Source of the DNA: an uncultured Sphingomonadales bacterium
Lineage (GTDB): Bacteria > Pseudomonadota > Alphaproteobacteria > Sphingomonadales > CAKZYD01
NCBI GenBank assembly: GCA_937884085.1
Contig: CAKZYD010000399.1
Coordinates: 1-40,446 of the forward strand
Reading direction: 5' to 3'
Length of the DNA: 40,446 nucleotides
The position numbers and the translations under genes were made by a program. The notes beneath the pieces were generated by a model, which did not search any database, had not been told where the DNA came from, and saw only the letters and a list, made by a program, of their open reading frames with translations. Below, one piece after another: positions 4,606-39,252 of the stretch (positions within the stretch are counted from its first letter, which is position 1; the number at the start of each line of letters is the position of its first letter).

Positions 4606-6156
4606 TCAACTCCGCCGCATCAGAGCGCCGCGCACACGGTTTGGGTGAAAAGCCCCAAAAGCGATCCCAGCGGCCAGATAGAGCGCCATGCCGAGGGCCA
4701 CGACACCGATTAAGCTGGGCAAGGCAATCCAGGGCGTGCTTTGCAGCGGCGTGGCCATGAAATGTGTTAAACCCATCAAGCCAGCGGCCATCGCCCCAGC
4801 GGCGAGAACCATCCGCAGCACGCGCGTTGCAACCTGCAGGTCAAGGGCAAAGTGACCACGGCGCTTCAGCCCAATCCATAAACTCAGCGCGTTGACCCAG
4901 GCCGCCACCGCCGTGGCAAGGGCGAGGCCAGCATGGCCAAGTGGGCCCATTAACGCAATGCCAGCTGCGGTATTCAGCAACAGGCAGAAGAGAGAAATTC
5001 GGACCGGTGTTTTGGTGTCGCCGCGGGCGAAGAACCCCGGCGTGAATACCTTGATGAGCATATAGGCTGGCAGACCGCTGGCATAAGCGAGCAGCGCACG
5101 CACTGTTGCGGCCGTATCCTCTGGCCGGAAGGCGCCATGTTCGAACAAGATGCGGATGAAGATATCCGGCACCGTCATCAACGCAATCATGGCAGGCAGT
5201 GTGATCACCAGCACCATTTCTAGGCTCAGGTTTAGGAGCCGTTGGCCTTCTTGGCTTTGGCCCAGGCTCAAGGCACGTGATAGCGAGGGGAGGAGCGCGG
5301 TGCCGACGGCCACGCCAATCACGCCAATCGGCAATTGGACCAACCGGTCTCCATAGTAGAGTTAAGAAATAGTCCCCTCCGTCAGAAAACGTGTCGCCAA
5401 AAGAACATCGATTAGCAGATTAATCTGGACCGCGCCGGCACCGATGGCCGCTGGCGCCATTGCTTTCAACATGGCAACCAGGTTGGGCGATAGACTTGGT
5501 CTTGGCAGGCGGAGTTCGATGCCGGCTTTTGAGAGGGTCCGCAGCAACAAGAGCATTTGCAAGACCCCGGCGATGGATACTGCCGCGGCAAGCGCCTGGG
5601 CGACAGCTCTTGGTGGCTCCGGTGAGAGCAGCATGGCAAGGATCAAACAGACATTCAGCACAATGGGGACGGCGGCAGCCGCTGCAAACCGGCCAAGGCC
5701 GTTAAGAACGCCCGACAGGAGGGAGACCAAGGAGATGAGGGCCAGGAAGGGAAAGGTGAGCCGGCTTAGCTCGATGGCCAGGGCCAGTTTCTCTGGATCG
5801 CCATCTTTAAAGCCGCCAGTCAGCCCCCAGACCACGGCTGGCATGAAGATTTCAACAAGCGCGATAAAGCCGATCAAGACGGGCAGGAAGATAGATAAAA
5901 CCCGCTGCGCAAAATGCCTGCCTGCTTCTGCATCGCGGGCATAGATCGCTGAAAAATAAGGAACGAACGCAGCGGAAAAGGCGCCCTCGGCAAAGAGGCG
6001 GCGAAAAAAGTTCGGAAGCTTGAAGGCGACAAAAAAAGCGTCAGCTGCTGGTCCGGCGCCGAGCGTTAACGCCATCAGCCAATCGCGGGCAAAGCCGGCG
6101 ACGCGGCTAAGCATGGTCATCGCGCCAACAGTGACTGCAGAACGGGCTAGGTTCAT
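4606..6156 (-). pseudogene. murJ: Lipid II flippase MurJ (MviN) interrupted by one in-frame TAA at 5362-5364; probably an intact gene with a base-call error
   Basis: ORFs 5362-6156 and 4606-5343 share a frame; TMLSRVAGFARD, AFKLPNFFRRLFAEGAFSAAFVP, then GTIS*LYYGDRLVQLPIG; 516 codons plus stop if read through. Confidence 0.9.
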
Positions 6157-29273: not shown

Positions 29274-30797
29274 CTATACCTGCTGGGCTTTTGGCCGGTC
29301 CACTGAAAAGCGCTTGCGGCGTTTCAGATAGGTGTTGAGGCCAATGCCCGCCATGAGCCCGACGCTGGCTAAGACAATGGCAGCGATCACGATGTTTTGG
29401 CCATTACGGCCCAGGGGGCGCAGGAAATTCCATTTGTGGATGAGACTGAAAGACCAGCGCTCCGGCTGCTGGCTGTTTGGCAGCTTATCGACAAGAGCGC
29501 CGGTGTCGGTATCGACCCATAAGGTGGCATTGACGGGCTCGCCATAGCTTAGCTGCCAAACGGGTAGGCGCTTGTTTCTAAAGTCGTAGAGCGGGCCAAA
29601 GCGCGTCACCAGGCTGGCCTCAGGCTCAGCATCGCTGCCGGTGAACCGGGCGCCTAGATGGGCCGCCATGGCAGCGTCACCGCCGTCCCAAGGCTGACCG
29701 GTTTCTGCGTCCACATAGACGGCAGGTCCTGTCATTGGCCGGCCTTCAAATCGGGTATCGCGCAAGGCTTCCGGCGTTAGGGGCGCTGCGCCGCGGGGCG
29801 CGGCGAGGCCGAGCCGGTAAAGAAGGGAGCCTGTTGGGCTAGTGACGAGCGATAAGGCGCTGACGGGAAGGCCCTTCGTCATCGCAGTCCATTCCTGTGC
29901 CAGCGGAAAGCGCATTTCGGCCACGTCCAAGCTGCTTTGCAGGGACAGCACCCGTTCGGGCGGTGTCGCGGCGGATGTAATCAAATGATAGAGCCCGCTG
30001 GAGGTGAACATCATAATCGGCAGGGCAAGCGCATAGCCCGCCATCTGGTGCCAGCGCATGCTGCCGCGAATGGGCGTTTTGCGCCTGATGGTGATGAGCA
30101 TTAAAGCGCCCGTAATAGCCAGGCCTAAAAGGCTGCCAACAAACAGCGCTATCAAAAGCACCCGGCCCCATTCCACATCGCGCGGCAGCCAGTCCCAGGT
30201 ATGAAACCAGCGAAAGCCGGTTTGCACCGCTCGCTTGAAATCATTGGTCATCCCGGCGGATGCATTGGTCTCCGTGTAGACGTACATGGAGCGGTTATCG
30301 GCCGTCTCGAAATCCACGCGGTAGACCGGCAGCAAGCGATTGACCCAGGGGTAGTTGGGTGTGAAATCGGTTAGGAATGTGGTGGCCTTAACGGGGGCAT
30401 CAAGGCCGCTATAGTGGCGCGCGAGGAACACCGCTTGGGCTTCATCCCCGCCCTCAATCTCCGCGCCGGTTTCAAGCGAGAAGTAGCGCCGCGCCGCCAT
30501 TTGGCTGGGCGTGACTTGCAGGACACTGCCCTGCGGCCCCGCCACCACTTTAATGGCTGCGGCCTTATCTATACCTGCATCGGCCAAAGTCTTTTGGAGC
30601 GGCTTCGCAATCTCAAGACTAAGCGGCGCCATGGGCGGCATCATCACCACTTGTTGCGGCCCCCAGGTGACCATCACAATGTGGAGGAGGCCAGACAAGC
30701 CAAAGATGAAGAGCCCAGTCCCGCCAAGCAGAGCCAGGAGCTGGTGCTTAGAAATCGCCCAGCGTTTGGTGCGCAGTTTTCTTGAAAGCGTTGCCAT
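29274..30797 (-). CDS. PepSY-associated TM-helix membrane protein
   Basis: Internally duplicated (YPWVNRLLPVYRV / YDFRNKRLPVWQL); TM segments with His (SGLLH, WFHTWDW, WHQ, SGLYH, IHKWNF); follows a TonB receptor. Confidence 0.8.
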   Translation of the reverse strand: MATLSRKLRTKRWAISKHQLLALLGGTGLFIFGLSGLLHIVMVTWGPQQVVMMPPMAPLSLEIAKPLQKTLADAGIDKAAAIKVVAGPQGSVLQVTPSQMAARRYFSLETGAEIEGGDEAQAVFLARHYSGLDAPVKATTFLTDFTPNYPWVNRLLPVYRVDFETADNRSMYVYTETNASAGMTNDFKRAVQTGFRWFHTWDWLPRDVEWGRVLLIALFVGSLLGLAITGALMLITIRRKTPIRGSMRWHQMAGYALALPIMMFTSSGLYHLITSAATPPERVLSLQSSLDVAEMRFPLAQEWTAMTKGLPVSALSLVTSPTGSLLYRLGLAAPRGAAPLTPEALRDTRFEGRPMTGPAVYVDAETGQPWDGGDAAMAAHLGARFTGSDAEPEASLVTRFGPLYDFRNKRLPVWQLSYGEPVNATLWVDTDTGALVDKLPNSQQPERWSFSLIHKWNFLRPLGRNGQNIVIAAIVLASVGLMAGIGLNTYLKRRKRFSVDRPKAQQV

Positions 30798-30810: not shown

Positions 30811-32940
30811 TTAGAACGAAATGGTCACGCCGCCAAACAGGGCGCGGCCTTGGCCGGGGGTGAAGAGCCGGTCGGTGATCTGTGCAGCGTCTGTCACGCC
30901 CGTATTTGCGACGAAGGTTTTGTCAGCGAGGTTCTCCCCACTGAGATACAGCTGAACCGCTTCATCAATGCGGTAGCCCAGGTTAAAGCCCCACAAGGCA
31001 TAGCCATCAGGCGCCACTTGGTTTGCCGAGTCGACGAACGGTCCATCGGGGATCCAGCGCACGTTCACGCCAGCAAACCACCCTTTTTCAGACGCGAGAC
31101 GCAGCTCAGAGGTATAGGCATGACGTGGCACGCCGGGCAGGCGGTTGTTACCGAAGTCTGGATCGTTGTCGAAATTGAAGGCGTTGAGCGTGTAGACGTG
31201 CCGCCAAACCAAAGCCATGTCATCTTTCTGATAAAGCTCGAAGTCGGCGCCAAGCTCAATGCCCTGGTGGATCGTGTCGCCCGCGTTGGATGTAGCGGTC
31301 ACAAAGGTGTTTTCGCCAACCTCGACGGCAAAGTCTAAAAACTCATTTTCGACCCAGCTGCGATAGTAGGTGACGTCCCAGGATACCCAGTCCAGCTGGC
31401 CGCGCGTTCCGATTTCTGCGGTCCAGCTGGTTTGCGCTTCCAGCTCCGTAAAGGGGAACGCCCCGCCTGCAGTGAGGTCGACAAGCGCCGGTGGCTCAAA
31501 CCCGCGCGAGACGTTCGCATAGACTTGGTAGTCCTCTTCAAGGGTCCAAACAAAGCCAAGCCGAGGGCTGATTTGATCAAAGGTTAGCCGGCCATTGGTG
31601 GCTGGATCGTCAAGGATGACGTCATTGTCGCGCGATGCCCAATTGTATTGGACCGTTGCCACCACCGTGAAGTCCTCGAAGACGTCTTTGCTGAGGTTGA
31701 GGTAGGCTAGAATGTTGGCAGAATCCTGATCATTGTCGGTGGAGAGGTCGCCGCGCTCCCCAAAGTCATTCTCCCAATTGCGGGCGGCATTGCTGCCCAC
31801 ATTGGCCTGGAAGCCAAAGCTCCAGCCAAAGCCAAGCTCGGAGTCGTCTTCATCGGCGCCAGCGCGGCCAAACAGGCCGTATTCCCACTCCTCCTGGTCA
31901 ATGATCCCGGCGAAGCGGGTGATGGCGTGGTCGAGCTTGCGATAGCTAACCCAGGCGCCGCCTTCGAGCGTCATGGTATCTAGCGCCAGGGCGGTTTTGT
32001 TGGAGACGCGAATAACGTCTAGGTTTCGATCCCAATCATCTTGTTCTGGGCTGCCTGCTAGCAGAATGGTTGGCCCGCCGGGGAAGAAGGGGCCGATTTC
32101 AACAGCGGGCTGCGTCTGCGTTGGATCTTCTGCAATCTCATCCAGCGTTAGGGACCCAGCCAGTTCAAAATTATCACTCAGCGCGGTGATGTAAAAACGG
32201 GTCTCGAGCCGTTCGGAAAGCTGAATGCCGACATTGGTGAAGCCGTAGACGCTGTTCACATCGGAATGGTCGCGAAAGCCTTCGCTGAAGAGGCCCGTCA
32301 CTCCTGCGTAAAAGTCGACGGTTTCGCCGGCGTGAGCGACGCGGGCGTTGGCGCGCAGGGTTTCAAAGCTGCCGCCCTCGAAGCGGAAGAAATACGGGTC
32401 TTTGACCGTGCGGCCGGTGGGCGTGATGACATTGATGGCGCCGCCTAAACTGGCCGCGCCCACTTGCATGCCGTTCGCGCCTTTTAGGACTTCCAGATAC
32501 TGGATCGATAGGGGGTCGATCTCTTGGAACTCCGTGGACCCGCTGGCCCGCGTGATCGGCACGCCATCGCGCAAAACGGTGATGCCGCGGCGCTCGAAGG
32601 CGGAATTGAGGCCTGAACCGCGGATAGAAATGCGGTTCTCGCGCTGTGCAGATGTGTCGGCGAAGACGCCAGGCGTGAAGACCAGCGTATCGCCCAGCGA
32701 CTGGGCAAAGCCGTCCAGAAACTCGCTGGCTTCGACAAAGCCGATCGCGCCTGGAATTTTGATGAGCCGCTCGCGGCGTTCCTGCGCCGAGGGGGCGGTC
32801 AGCGTTCCAGAGTTAATCGCTTGAACCTTAATCTCTTCAAGGTCGAGCAGGCGCTGGCCAATGCCTTGCGCTATGGCGGTGGTTGAAAGCAAGCTAAGAC
32901 GGGGGGCAGCGATCCATGCGCTGCGCTGCATTTGGGTCAT
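30811..32940 (-). CDS. TonB-dependent outer-membrane receptor
   Basis: Plug RISIRGSGL...LRDGVPI...EVLKGANG...LGGAINVIT; C-terminal ENLADKTF...PGQGRALFGGVTISF; start ATG 32940. Confidence 0.93.
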   Translation of the reverse strand: MTQMQRSAWIAAPRLSLLSTTAIAQGIGQRLLDLEEIKVQAINSGTLTAPSAQERRERLIKIPGAIGFVEASEFLDGFAQSLGDTLVFTPGVFADTSAQRENRISIRGSGLNSAFERRGITVLRDGVPITRASGSTEFQEIDPLSIQYLEVLKGANGMQVGAASLGGAINVITPTGRTVKDPYFFRFEGGSFETLRANARVAHAGETVDFYAGVTGLFSEGFRDHSDVNSVYGFTNVGIQLSERLETRFYITALSDNFELAGSLTLDEIAEDPTQTQPAVEIGPFFPGGPTILLAGSPEQDDWDRNLDVIRVSNKTALALDTMTLEGGAWVSYRKLDHAITRFAGIIDQEEWEYGLFGRAGADEDDSELGFGWSFGFQANVGSNAARNWENDFGERGDLSTDNDQDSANILAYLNLSKDVFEDFTVVATVQYNWASRDNDVILDDPATNGRLTFDQISPRLGFVWTLEEDYQVYANVSRGFEPPALVDLTAGGAFPFTELEAQTSWTAEIGTRGQLDWVSWDVTYYRSWVENEFLDFAVEVGENTFVTATSNAGDTIHQGIELGADFELYQKDDMALVWRHVYTLNAFNFDNDPDFGNNRLPGVPRHAYTSELRLASEKGWFAGVNVRWIPDGPFVDSANQVAPDGYALWGFNLGYRIDEAVQLYLSGENLADKTFVANTGVTDAAQITDRLFTPGQGRALFGGVTISF

Positions 32941-32990
32941 GAGTAATGACTTTCCGAAGGAACATGGGGGATGTTTGGGGTGGCCGCGCT

Positions 32991-34076
32991 TTAAAACGCT
33001 TTTTGCCAACCCACCGTCAGCGTCCAATCGGTTTCCAGCTGCGGTCCATTGAGGTTGCGATAGAGCGGCAGGCCGAACTCAAAGCCCAGCCGGTGGCCTT
33101 TAATGACGCCCTCTTGGCCGGCTAGATTGACCCCAAGCAGCGCGGTGACCGTCTCACCGCCTTGGTTTTCCGGATCAGCGGTTTGTACCGGCGCAGCGAT
33201 GAGTGGATCTTGGCCGCTAATTTTGCCTTGGTGGCGCGCTTCGACACGGCCGGATGCAGAGATCCAGGGCGCGAATTCATAAGAGAGCCAGGCAGTTGCC
33301 GCGCCGACATGGCCAAGCCTGTAGTCCTCATCATTTTCATTGATGCGCACAATGCCGCTCAGCTGGCCGCCCAAGCTCCAATCGCCGATACGGTTGCGTG
33401 AGGTCACGTTGGGGCGAAATTCAAAGCTTCCGGAGCCAAGCTGCATGGGATAAGGCAGGCGCGGTGTTGGCGTCGTATTCATGGGCGTCAGGATTTGGTC
33501 GGTATTGGTGATCGATCCAGTTGGAATGCCGAACAGTAGGGCGACATTCATTTGATCATGCTTGCTTGTGCCATCATCAAGACCGATGATGGCGCCAAGC
33601 ACGCTATCGCCAAAGCCGCTCGATTCGGTTGTAAACGTGCCAAGCCGGTTTGTGCCCATACCGCCTTGGAAGGTGATATGGTCCATTTCCAGGCTGATGA
33701 TATTGGTCATGGCCATGAGCGTGATGCGATCAGAAAGGCCATACATACCGCCAATCATATGCATGTTCATGGTCATTTGTGTTGGCACAACCCGCAGGGT
33801 GGGCGGCATACCGAAGGGGTTGGCGACTGTCGTGACAATCTCTTCGGGTGATAAAGATGTGGTGCCGTCTCGGCTTCCCTCCATGTCCATCGTCATGAAG
33901 CGGTAAGACAGCATCCATTCGCCTTTCTCATGGCGGTGGTCGGCCATAACGCCAATGGGCGCGTGGTCTGAAGCGTAGGTAACGTTTCCGCCATCGTCGT
34001 CATGCGCAAAGCTGGAAGTTGAAAAACAAGTAAGAGCGACGCCGCATTGAAAGGCGCCTGCAAGGAAGCGAAACAT
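32991..34076 (-). CDS. Met/His-rich outer-membrane barrel 'transporter' (MetA-pathway-like), candidate copper channel
   Basis: Signal peptide; DHAPIGVMADHRHEKGEWMLSYRFMTMDM, MTMNMHMIGGMYG, SGFGD, YPMQLGSGS; terminal GWQKAF. Confidence 0.75.
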   Translation of the reverse strand: MFRFLAGAFQCGVALTCFSTSSFAHDDDGGNVTYASDHAPIGVMADHRHEKGEWMLSYRFMTMDMEGSRDGTTSLSPEEIVTTVANPFGMPPTLRVVPTQMTMNMHMIGGMYGLSDRITLMAMTNIISLEMDHITFQGGMGTNRLGTFTTESSGFGDSVLGAIIGLDDGTSKHDQMNVALLFGIPTGSITNTDQILTPMNTTPTPRLPYPMQLGSGSFEFRPNVTSRNRIGDWSLGGQLSGIVRINENDEDYRLGHVGAATAWLSYEFAPWISASGRVEARHQGKISGQDPLIAAPVQTADPENQGGETVTALLGVNLAGQEGVIKGHRLGFEFGLPLYRNLNGPQLETDWTLTVGWQKAF

Positions 34077-34136
34077 AGTTTTGAAGTCCTAAAAGCGAAA
34101 AATTTGGGCGCAGCGCGGATGACTGCTGTCGTTTGC

Positions 34137-34493
34137 TTAAAGGATGGCGGGTGGCCCGTGCGGTGGTGCGCCGAGCCAAAGCTGTCTCCCAACGGAGACT
34201 TGCGCAGGTGTGATGGATCGCTGAACAAGGTCCATGATGCCGCGATATGCCGCGCTCGTGAGTGGCCGCACGGACGCATAGTCTGATGTGTTGCAATCGC
34301 CGCAGCAGGTGTTTTGCGAACTATCTTCGGGGACGGGGTCGCCAATGGCGATCTCCACAACCCCTTGTCCGTGAAGGCCGCAGAGCTGAACGGTTTCCGT
34401 ATCGGAAGAGCTTTGCGTCACATGCGCTTGCGCTCCGTTGCCAAGCAGGCAAAGAGCGGCGAACAGCAGCCAGAGTTTTTGTTTCAAGCGCAT
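34137..34493 (-). CDS. DUF2946/CruR-like leader ORF with CxxC and a C-terminal HGPP motif
   Basis: 118 aa; N-terminal hydrophobic segment, LCGLHG, CCGDC (34293-34307), PPHGPP three residues before the stop; first gene of the transporter-TBDT-PepSY block. Confidence 0.75.
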   Translation of the reverse strand: MRLKQKLWLLFAALCLLGNGAQAHVTQSSSDTETVQLCGLHGQGVVEIAIGDPVPEDSSQNTCCGDCNTSDYASVRPLTSAAYRGIMDLVQRSITPAQVSVGRQLWLGAPPHGPPAIL

Positions 34494-34500
34494 ATGTCAC

Positions 34501-34529
34501 CCGCTAACCAACGAATGTGGCGCCGTCAA
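34501..34529 (-). promoter_or_regulatory. Sigma-70-type promoter for the DUF2946 ORF (predicts a leaderless mRNA)
   Basis: TTGACG-N17-TAGCGG-N7-ATG; no Shine-Dalgarno sequence. Confidence 0.55.
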
Positions 34530-34543
34530 GTCGAAGCGCATAA

Positions 34544-34571
34544 TTGCACTGGCCCGCCGCGCGCTTTACAT
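34544..34571 (+). promoter_or_regulatory. Putative RpoH-like promoter of hrcA (near-leaderless)
   Basis: TTG(CAC)-...-CTTTACAT with 17 nt between TTG and CTTTACAT, ending 7 nt before ATG 34579. Confidence 0.45.
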
Positions 34572-38765: not shown

Positions 38766-39212
38766 TTATCGCTTGACTTGCGCCTCTGTCGTCAAGCTTG
38801 AGCTATCTGCAAACTCGGCGGTGAGCGTAATCTGACCGTCGTCAACGGCGACTTCAGCGATATCGAACAGCATCAGATGACGGCCACCTGGCTCGAAGGT
38901 CAGCGTGCCGTCGCTGTCAATCAGAAGGGCGTCGACCTTTTTCATGCGCATGGCGCCGCCTTGGTCTTCCATGATATGAAGTTCAATGCGCCCAACTTCT
39001 GCGGATGTCACTTGCGTCAGCGCCAGGCTTGCAGGGCCTTTAATAACGCCATAGCCACCTGCAGGCCGACCCGGCGCTGGATTGAGGCGGACGGTGAAAT
39101 TTTCCGCCGACAAAACGGCAGTCCCTGCGGGCGCTGCAGCCTCTTCGCTGCATGCCGAAACGAGCGCTAGGCCAATAATCGCAGCTGACTTTGCCAAATT
39201 TAGAACTTTCAT
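38766..39212 (-). CDS. Copper chaperone PCu(A)C family lipoprotein
   Basis: Lipobox VSAC; IELHIMEDQGGAMRM...FEPGGRHLML (H-x10-M...H-x-M ligands); start ATG 39212 after AAGGA. Confidence 0.92.
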   Translation of the reverse strand: MKVLNLAKSAAIIGLALVSACSEEAAAPAGTAVLSAENFTVRLNPAPGRPAGGYGVIKGPASLALTQVTSAEVGRIELHIMEDQGGAMRMKKVDALLIDSDGTLTFEPGGRHLMLFDIAEVAVDDGQITLTAEFADSSSLTTEAQVKR

Positions 39213-39252
39213 CCGTTTTTCCTTCGTGCCGGCTCTTGTCATGCTCGCGGGG

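Follow-up and report, generated by a model that had tools for sequence, protein, structure and literature searches.

Introduction

Two models of gene control by leader proteins of the DUF2946 family (PF11162) have been published. In CruR (Bp2923) of Bordetella pertussis, arrest at a C-terminal RAPP motif (PMC9426467 section 9; PMC12992588) protects against Rho, and in CutF of Rhodobacter capsulatus (cutFOG), a stall at a proline motif melts a stem-loop that shields the next gene's Shine-Dalgarno (SD) sequence. CutF stalls at its proline run without an Arg, its C-terminus reading ...P109EPEGPPPRL118 (PMC9973294; 10.1101/2025.02.05.636593). Here, we analyzed a leader open reading frame (ORF) in a 40,446-nucleotide (nt) stretch of DNA, contig CAKZYD010000399.1 of assembly GCA_937884085.1 from an uncultured Sphingomonadales bacterium, hereafter called the window. 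Sequence comparisons indicate that this ORF encodes a divergent, Arg-less leader peptide of the DUF2946 (CruR/CutF) type, whose family appears to combine CruR-like protein geometry and gene neighborhood with a CutF-like RNA output, in which the 3' end of the leader gene forms a helix with the SD region of the following outer-membrane barrel gene.

A further point of comparison is provided by the RAPP/RGPP arrest peptides ApdA, ApdP and ApcA, and by SecM with RAGP. Like the leader, they are exported, are small in size and carry x-[AG]-P-P close to the C-terminus, and their genes lie upstream of the gene under their control (PMC12992588 section 7). In the stalled ribosome, Pro occupies both the P site and the A site (PMC12992588); in ApcA, ApdA and ApdP, all 19 substitutions of the Arg abolish arrest, and an A-to-G change at the position after it strengthens arrest (PMC12992588 section 7). 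These peptides monitor Sec/YidC activity rather than metals, and the Arg that is essential in them occurs in 1 of 33 members of the leader family.

The leader and its homologs

The leader ORF lies on the minus strand at 34137..34493, with ATG at 34493 and TAA at 34139-34137, and encodes 118 amino acids. The protein starts with MRLKQKLWLLFAALCLLGNGAQA, followed after the predicted cleavage site by HVTQ, and ends with LWLGAPPHGPPAIL before the stop codon. On re-reading the sequence, we found the coordinates and translation as first reported, including AQA-H, LCGLHG (containing C38), CCGDC (residues 63-67, nt 34293-34307) and HGPP, whose codons CAC GGG CCA CCC occupy 34160-34149. The 60-nt spacer between the leader and the next ATG (34076) also agreed with the original description, a T/C-rich run preceding AGGA (34090-34087), which lies 10 nt 5' of the ATG. 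The features of the leader are as follows.

34425..34493, minus strand: predicted Sec-type signal peptide, residues 1-23 (...GNGAQA, then H), assigned by eye from the sequence
34380..34382, minus strand: codon of C38, an upstream Cys invariant in 35/35 proteins, aligned with a semi-conserved Cys of DUF2946
34293..34307, minus strand: CCGDC (C63 C64 G65 D66 C67), a CxxC metal-binding-type motif, recognized by conservation and by alignment on CGYC of canonical DUF2946
34149..34178, minus strand: W-L-G-A-P-P-H-G-P-P (residues 106-115), candidate arrest module with HGPP (34149-34160) at the RAPP position

The signal peptide was recognized by its K/R-rich start, hydrophobic core and A-x-A, and the block ANGAQ[AT]H is kept in the consensus of the family alignment of 35 proteins. 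A word-indexed protein search with the leader returned the window's own protein as the sole match. With phmmer, an exhaustive search through 1.84 billion cluster representatives retrieved 38 proteins at E<=1e-3, the window's own and 37 others, 34 of which were small homologs. Two genomes of the same genus carry homologs (E 1.3e-20 and 3.9e-9). The family alignment therefore comprised 35 proteins, the window's and these 34, and three matches were left out. One of them, P0009 (298 residues), is leader-like in its first 73 residues only, up to CCGDC, and continues with membrane-transporter-like sequence, and is probably the product of a chimeric or rearranged contig; in the other two, P0034 (1227 residues) and P0038 (499 residues), the matches were short and repeated.

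At a mean column identity of 35%, eight positions of the alignment were invariant (C38, C64, A109, P110, P111, G113, P114 and P115), and G20, G65, C67, W106, P107 and G108 were conserved in at least 90% of the proteins. The family consensus ends with PRSPLWPGAPPQGPP and a variable tail of 2-7 residues, which are not conserved. Given this conservation across 35 homologs, the motifs of the leader exceed chance. For the study of loci, we scanned 185,579 species genomes with the pattern WPGAPPQG, which was taken from a 15-row sub-alignment and fixes the variable residue x as Q. This yielded 32 loci, all from Henriciella, Hyphomonas, or unclassified Hyphomonadaceae or Pseudomonadota metagenome-assembled genomes.

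The relation to DUF2946 emerged at the level of the family. The leader protein itself had no Pfam or NCBIfam match at E<=1, and a genome-wide search with PF11162 at E<=10 did not retrieve the ORF, which thus falls short of the gathering score of 23.7 bits; in this the leader, which the Pfam DUF2946 model does not score, differs from CruR. The hidden Markov model (HMM) search that the earlier note had proposed as a check was therefore negative for the window protein, though 26 of the 35 family members touched PF11162 at E<=1 (best 3.2e-7). For a profile comparison, we collected a canonical DUF2946 set of 30 genes from 301 genomes of the phylum (57/301 had a match over the cut-off), of which 29 were aligned and one, apparently frameshifted, was dropped. 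Hhalign matched the leader family to these 29 sequences, each of which scored above the Pfam cut-off, with a probability of 96.1% (E 3.7e-9, 94 columns), placing C38 on a semi-conserved Cys and the motifs CCGDC and xGPP on CGYC and RAPP, respectively.

The spacing of the motifs agrees with this alignment. The CxxC and xGPP of the window leader are separated by 44 residues, as they are in 27 of 33 members (range 43-46), and the corresponding distance is 45-46 residues in 19 of 25 canonical proteins; the DUF2946 layout, in which 45 +/- 2 residues separate the two motifs and about 3 residues follow the second, is thus found in the leader, whose tail is 3 residues long. Of the further hallmarks of DUF2946, the conserved CxxC is present as C64-G-D-C67, and the export signal and first-in-operon position are present as well (the signal judged by eye, the downstream TonB and PepSY_TM genes by Pfam), whereas HGPP takes the place of the C-terminal RAPP. 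Based on the hhalign match, the matching CxxC and RAPP columns and the family-typical spacing, we conclude that the leader is a divergent CruR/CutF-type leader. Since profile alignment and spacing agree, HGPP corresponds to RAPP by position.

In its protein geometry the leader resembles CruR, which has a CxxC, a motif 45 residues later (44-45 in this comparison) and 3 residues from the end, and a predicted export signal (PMC9426467 section 9). The cruR gene likewise comes first, ahead of genes for a TonB-dependent receptor and a PepSY_TM protein (PMC9426467 section 10). The two differ in that the RAPP of CruR contains an essential Arg that is absent from the window leader, that the export signal of CruR is dispensable, and that in the window a barrel gene stands between leader and receptor. 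Furthermore, the CruR spacer is 162 bp long and belongs to a model of Rho-dependent termination, whereas the spacer here is 60 nt long and carries an SD-masking helix (PMC9426467, for CruR).

The earlier note had read the ORF as a CruR-like sensor using His instead of Arg, with an extra Cys and an apparently cleavable signal peptide. The assignment to a DUF2946-type leader stood, but the view of a His-for-Arg variant did not: at the RAPP Arg position the family has Q in 19 members, H in 4, I in 4, V in 2, and N, R, L and T in one each (n=33), whereas all 25 canonical proteins with both CxxC and the motif (of 29 aligned) have Arg. HGPP itself is therefore not the conserved element, because His is a minority residue there, and the invariant part is WPGAPP-x-GPP. 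An alignment of orthologs, suggested for testing conservation of the Cys residues and of [RH][AG]PP, accordingly bore out the former (C38 and C64 invariant, C67 in at least 90%) and GPP, but not [RH], found as H in 4 and R in 1 of 33. The signal peptide and C38 do not set the leader apart. A semi-conserved upstream Cys aligned with C38 is a trait of DUF2946 (the comparison covers C38), export is predicted for more than 95% of DUF2946 proteins (PMC9426467 section 9), and CutF needs its signal peptide in order to function (PMC9973294 abstract).

In the supplements of PMC9973294 and PMC9426467, as far as their contents were available, we found no mention of Hyphomonas, Henriciella, Hyphomonadaceae, PF13557 or Phenol_MetA_deg; large lists may lie outside this material, so the family may be catalogued there. 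A literature search for the motif strings WPGAPP, GAPPQGPP, APPQGPP and PPQGPP gave nothing related among the matches listed.

Upstream of the leaders in loci L019-L049, a conserved promoter-like pair, GCGAC[AG]-N17-TAA.CG, was seen by eye in most loci, ending about 7 nt 5' of the leader ATG, and a conserved GGACA...GC[CA]GCA block lies immediately 5' of this pair. The corresponding region of the window (34494-34560, minus strand) reads TTGACG-N16-TTAGCG, 8 nt, then ATG. A sigma-70 scan of the window returned no promoter. The layout of these conserved elements suggests that the leader mRNA may be leaderless or nearly so, with a possible operator.

A helix between the leader 3' end and the SD region

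When the 3' ends of the leader genes were aligned with the spacers, the codons after GPP proved to be the reverse complement of the sequence just 5' of the barrel start in all 32 loci. The paired tail and ribosome-binding site (RBS) sequences differ among loci.

Tail CUCACAAAG, RBS CUUUGUGAG: many loci
Tail CUCGCAAAG, RBS CUUUGCGAG: other loci
Tail UUCGAAAAG, RBS CUUUUCGAA: locus L042
Tail AUCCUGU, RBS ACAGGAU: locus L002, from the same genus

In the window, the corresponding elements are the following.

34135..34144, minus strand: 5' arm of the helix, UCCU (34144-34141, in the Ile-Leu codons) and AAGC (34138-34135, the last two stop-codon bases and 2 nt)
34109..34128, minus strand: weak inner hairpin found by folding, a degenerate form of the GC-rich hairpin of other loci
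34087..34096, minus strand: 3' arm of the helix, GCUU (34096-34093) and AGGA (34090-34087, the barrel SD, 10 nt 5' of the ATG)

Tails and RBS regions of the same locus match each other specifically. The duplex of a tail with its own RBS had a mean energy of -14.5 kcal/mol, as compared with -9.1 kcal/mol in 992 non-own combinations, a difference reached in 0 of 10000 permutations. The window's tail formed a duplex of -10.6 kcal/mol with its own RBS and of -5.1 kcal/mol on average with the 31 other RBS regions, none of which did better (rank 0/31). On a MAFFT alignment that was not fitted to structure, 75.9% of the cells of a 9-bp helix were paired, versus 66.2 +/- 1.3 after shuffling (0/500), and 29 cells showed double changes, versus 10.4 +/- 2.6 (0/500). 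Compensatory changes occurred in 5 of the 9 pairs, and slid controls paired at 31-53%.

Folding gave a consistent picture. In minimum free energy (MFE) folds from the post-GPP codon to the ATG, 8-15 tail:RBS base pairs formed in 32 of 32 loci, usually enclosing the GC-rich hairpin, which was clear by eye at the same place in about 28 of the 32; the mean z of the folds was -2.9, with z < -2 in 23 of 32 loci. An unanchored search for the best partner of the tail within 250 nt downstream was without power, as the positive-control family itself reached a mean z of only -0.5. The 5' arm begins 0-5 nt past the last Pro codon whatever the tail length, and the stop codon follows 3-7 codons later. Because the tails vary yet the start of the 5' arm is fixed, selection acts on the RNA and is anchored to GPP rather than to the stop codon.

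A covarying, CutF-like helix that masks the SD and is encoded at the leader 3' end is thus well supported. It appears to be the RNA output of the system, which had gone unseen when the ORF was first described.

The likeness to CutF extends to several features. The CutF precursor also has 118 residues (by the residue numbering of the preprint), with a cleavable Sec signal peptide (predicted here) and, some 41 residues after the start of the mature chain, a Cys motif; it ends in G-P-P... with a 2-3 residue tail, and an RNA structure shields the SD of the next gene (PMC9973294 abstract, sections 3 and 5). Pausing of a ribosome at the Pro motif would open up this structure, and action is in cis (CutF preprint, 10.1101/2025.02.05.636593, sections 21 and 23). 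By the sequence and layout features in the operational definition of CutF-like proteins (Ozturk et al. 2023), the leader is one of them: it has 118 residues, two PP pairs in the last 10 residues, a signal peptide judged by eye and a 60-nt spacer, and the SD-shielding stem-loop is found with covariation in 32 of 32 loci, the window's copy being weak. These likenesses were drawn from published descriptions of CutF. The two systems differ in that CutF has CxxxC and PPP (EGPPPRL) where the leader family has CxxC and WPGAPP-x-GPP, and in that the CutF stem-loop is described as intergenic whereas the 5' arm in the leader family lies in the last leader codons. For CruR, the term Shine-Dalgarno does not occur in the text of the paper (PMC9426467).

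These features bear on whether control could instead be of the CruR type. In such a case, an arrested ribosome would block Rho and its release would let Rho terminate transcription in the spacer, and the helix would be incidental or an RNA polymerase pause signal. The order of leader, TonB receptor and PepSY_TM genes is that of cruR-bfrG-bp2921 (PMC9426467 abstract and section 10), the motif spacing is CruR-like, and the spacer contains a C/T-rich run. However, with 60 nt here and 45-71 nt in the family, the spacer is far from the 162 bp of B. pertussis, where the rut site lies inside cruR (PMC9426467), and conserved structure fills most of it. In addition, a terminator scan placed both terminator-like sites of the window on the plus strand and none on the minus strand, and the covariation is centered on the SD itself. 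We therefore regard Rho-based control as very unlikely here, though Rho and an SD mask could coexist.

In two loci a TonB-dependent receptor gene directly follows the leader, and pairings of another kind were seen there by eye. In L003 (1404-1520, minus strand) the tail takes part in a chain of alternative pairings that ends in a 9-bp hairpin beside the start codon, and in L028 (6320-6400) it pairs over 9 bp with a segment 5' of a second hairpin beside the SD.

The candidate arrest motif and the proposed mechanism

Several observations bear on whether the conserved C-terminal motif would stall ribosomes. HGPP was selected as a stalling motif in Escherichia coli by the Buskirk laboratory, as were WPP-type motifs, and is under-represented in proteomes (PMC12992588, PMC10951233); H-G-P-P of the window is literally one of the motifs so selected, with His a minority residue at that position in the leader family. 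The structure model of the leader was of low confidence (predicted local distance difference test [pLDDT] 67.2, predicted template modeling score [pTM] 0.28), with no structure past residue 49. Because the peptide is modeled as unstructured there, albeit at low confidence, the invariance of W-P-G-A-P-P-x-G-P-P is hard to explain without stalling. By analogy with the described arrest peptides, we infer a pause at GP-P.

We consider it reasonably probable that an exported nascent leader of the DUF2946 kind pauses at GP-P and thereby exposes the barrel SD, with the pause set by the state of the Cys motif, most likely through copper. The N-terminal part of the leader, with C38 and C64xxC67, would be threaded into the periplasm during translation. 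At W-P-G-A-P-P-x-G-P-P the ribosome would then pause, its P site holding G-P and its A site the last Pro codon. The 5' arm of the helix would be formed by the 8-13 nt that follow, Ile-Leu-stop in the window, and the 3' arm by the barrel SD region. A ribosome in this position covers several nucleotides beyond the A site, and its helicase works at a distance of about 11-13 nt from the first base of the P site; the stretch that it reaches would be the start of the 5' arm, partnered by the SD bases themselves. The paused ribosome would in this way unwind the base of the helix and free the SD, and after its departure the helix would re-form and mask the barrel gene. The length of the pause would depend on the exported Cys motif and its state, with copper binding the most likely determinant, as in CutF and CruR. 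The job of the leader peptide would probably be done during its own synthesis.

Several points speak against this proposal. The helix of the window is the weakest of the set, with two 4-bp blocks separated by a 2x2 mismatch, and in two foldings its energy was no better than that of shuffled sequences (z 0.01 and z -0.7), so that the case for the window's own helix rests on its homologous position and on the own-versus-other duplex rank. The 32 loci all belong to a single bacterial family and were collected with one sequence pattern, and the permutation tests ignore their relatedness. The irreplaceable Arg of RAPP-type motifs, at position -3 of the stall site, is missing in 32 of 33 members, with His in the window, and strong intrinsic arrest is therefore not assured. 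The stalling of HGPP in the E. coli screen depended on the seven upstream residues (PMC10951233). Finally, any ribosome translating the leader would open the helix in passing.

Because passing ribosomes open the helix, plain translational coupling also fits the RNA data. The leader would then be a working periplasmic copper-binding or chaperone peptide with a structural PP-rich end, and coupling would fix the ratio of leader to barrel without a regulated pause. Under this explanation, the helix geometry lets any ribosome that reaches the stop codon open the helix, and both the conservation of the exported part, including the N-terminal His after predicted cleavage, and the absence of the RAPP Arg would be expected. 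It accounts less well for a 5' arm anchored to GPP (0-5 nt) and not to a stop codon 3-7 codons later, or for the fact that the best-conserved block is the last 10 residues ahead of the variable tail, within a C-terminal half that has no predicted secondary structure (pLDDT 52-69). Moreover, CutF and CruR both work in cis while still nascent, and neither product can be detected in cells (PMC9973294 section 3; PMC9426467). Coupling of this kind is unlikely in our estimation, and a regulated pause remains the preferred reading.

Downstream genes

The genes that follow the leader are listed below.

32991..34076, minus strand: 361-residue Met/His-rich outer-membrane beta-barrel (Phenol_MetA_deg / COG4313-like; PF13557, 26.5 bits), predicted mature N-terminus H-D-D-D-G-G
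30811..33027, minus strand: 738-residue TonB-dependent receptor with plug and barrel domains, the listed ORF starting from TTG 33027
29274..30797, minus strand: 507-residue PepSY-associated transmembrane protein, last in the block (PF03929, 30.7 bits)

The real start of the receptor is likely the ATG near 32943. The block is flanked by divergent hrcA and grpE upstream and by rph after it. In 32 of 34 distinct loci, a barrel homolog (62-74% identity) lies directly 3' of the leader, and the barrel is far better conserved than the leader; the spacer between them measures 45-71 nt across the family, after correction of two start choices. In the other two loci (L003 and L028), a TonB-dependent receptor directly follows the leader. 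Homologs of the window's receptor and PepSY_TM gene after the barrel were found in the window alone, and the conserved partner of the leader is therefore the 361-residue barrel rather than the TonB block. The original description of a three-gene uptake block thus holds for the window, where the barrel gene is followed by TonB receptor and PepSY_TM genes of the kinds found in the cruR block, but not for the conserved target. Overall, the analysis confirmed the observation made in the earlier note and partly supported its interpretation.

The barrel had no PDB sequence match at E<=1. Its AlphaFold2 model was a beta-barrel (pLDDT 77.9, pTM 0.77) whose nearest PDB structure was the COG4313 channel 4rl8 (Foldseek E 2.6e-13, target-normalized template modeling score 0.76), with FapF also among the neighbors. 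Met accounts for 5.0-6.9% of the barrel residues, and H38, H47, H49, M61, M63, M65, M101, M103, M105, M107 and M111 are invariant. Clusters of Met and His like these typify Cu(I)/Cu(II) sites. Across the family, the predicted mature N-terminus of the barrel is H-[ED]-[GD]-D-G-G. A literature search combining COG4313, copper and outer membrane found nothing related, and a COG4313-like barrel neighbor is not named in the available parts of the DUF2946 surveys (PMC9973294, PMC9426467).

The predicted mature N-terminus is His in both the leader (AQA-H, 34425-34427) and the barrel (SFA-HDDDGG; family form AxA-HEGDGG). After cleavage, the N-terminal His of leader and barrel could contribute to a copper site.

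The slot between hrcA and rph differs in three genomes of the genus: it holds barrel-leader-barrel (L002/L018), leader-TonB receptor (L003), or leader-barrel-TonB receptor-PepSY_TM (window). Elsewhere in the window, a stand-alone PCu(A)C copper chaperone gene (38766-39242, minus strand; PF04314, E 3.2e-20) adjoins dnaK, 4.3 kb from the leader. The murJ gene is present as two adjacent ORFs (4606-5343 and 5362-6156, minus strand) covering Pfam MurJ positions 1-233 and 242-438; the split is due either to the gene itself, through a frameshift or a stop, or to faulty assembly of this 433-contig genome.

Ligand and direction of control

Family precedent, the CxxC, the Met/His-rich barrel and the nearby PCuAC gene together point, by analogy, to copper as the ligand. 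The same switch might respond to another signal, such as another metal or the periplasmic thiol-oxidation state, with disulfide formation pulling the chain. In the model of the CutF preprint, disulfide formation relieves the stall (10.1101/2025.02.05.636593 section 23). The nearest solved relatives of the TonB receptor are YncD and PqqU (E ~1e-32), with no copper receptor among them, and the receptor reaches no NCBIfam family at its cut-off. Both characterized relatives, CruR and CutF, respond to copper, however, and the invariant Met/His clusters of the barrel and the neighboring PCuAC gene also favor this metal. A signal other than copper thus seems quite unlikely, and copper remains the preferred ligand.

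As for the direction of control, the target of CutF is a copper-induced periplasmic multicopper oxidase serving detoxification, whereas an outer-membrane barrel and, in the window, uptake-type genes follow here. Given the TonB and PepSY genes in the window, copper-repressed uptake, as in cruR-bfrG, has by analogy slightly better than even chances. Induction by copper, as in cutF-cutO, would be a rather less probable outcome.

Extension to canonical DUF2946 leaders

Tails and RBS regions also match in canonical, RAPP-type DUF2946 loci. Among 28 such loci, in which downstream starts were crudely predicted, the own tail:RBS duplex had a mean energy of -11.2 kcal/mol versus -8.8 kcal/mol for non-own combinations (0/10000 permutations), and perfect helices of 7-11 bp between an anti-SD and the SD were present in about 10 of the 28. 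Of 11 downstream ORFs checked by Pfam, 5 encode TonB receptors, 2 PepSY_TM proteins, 1 SCO1 and 1 PCuAC, and 2 were without assignment. For RAPP-type cruR homologs, the Rho-dependent model is the only one known to be in print. These sequence data hint that a tail-encoded SD mask may be general in DUF2946.

In the RAPP-type loci L053, L054, L059, L061, L064, L069, L071, L072, L075 and L078, the anti-SD lies in the 2-9 codons past RAPP. In L075, UUCCUGAC pairs with GUCAGGAA, 8 nt 5' of the ATG of a TonB receptor gene.

We tentatively propose, with less than even confidence, that W-P-G-A-P-P-x-G-P-P works as an arrest module independent of Arg, an alternative to RAPP, and that a post-arrest anti-SD arm is a general output of DUF2946 leaders. 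If this is true, an undescribed output would cover RAPP-type cruR homologs before TonB receptor, PepSY_TM, SCO1 and PCuAC genes.

For the RNA half of such a switch, the clean covariation seen here is rare among leaders this short. The Met/His-rich COG4313-like barrel is a candidate copper channel and would be a new kind of target gene for these leaders. Combining both published models, the Arg-less family may thus offer a natural test of what the arrest module requires.

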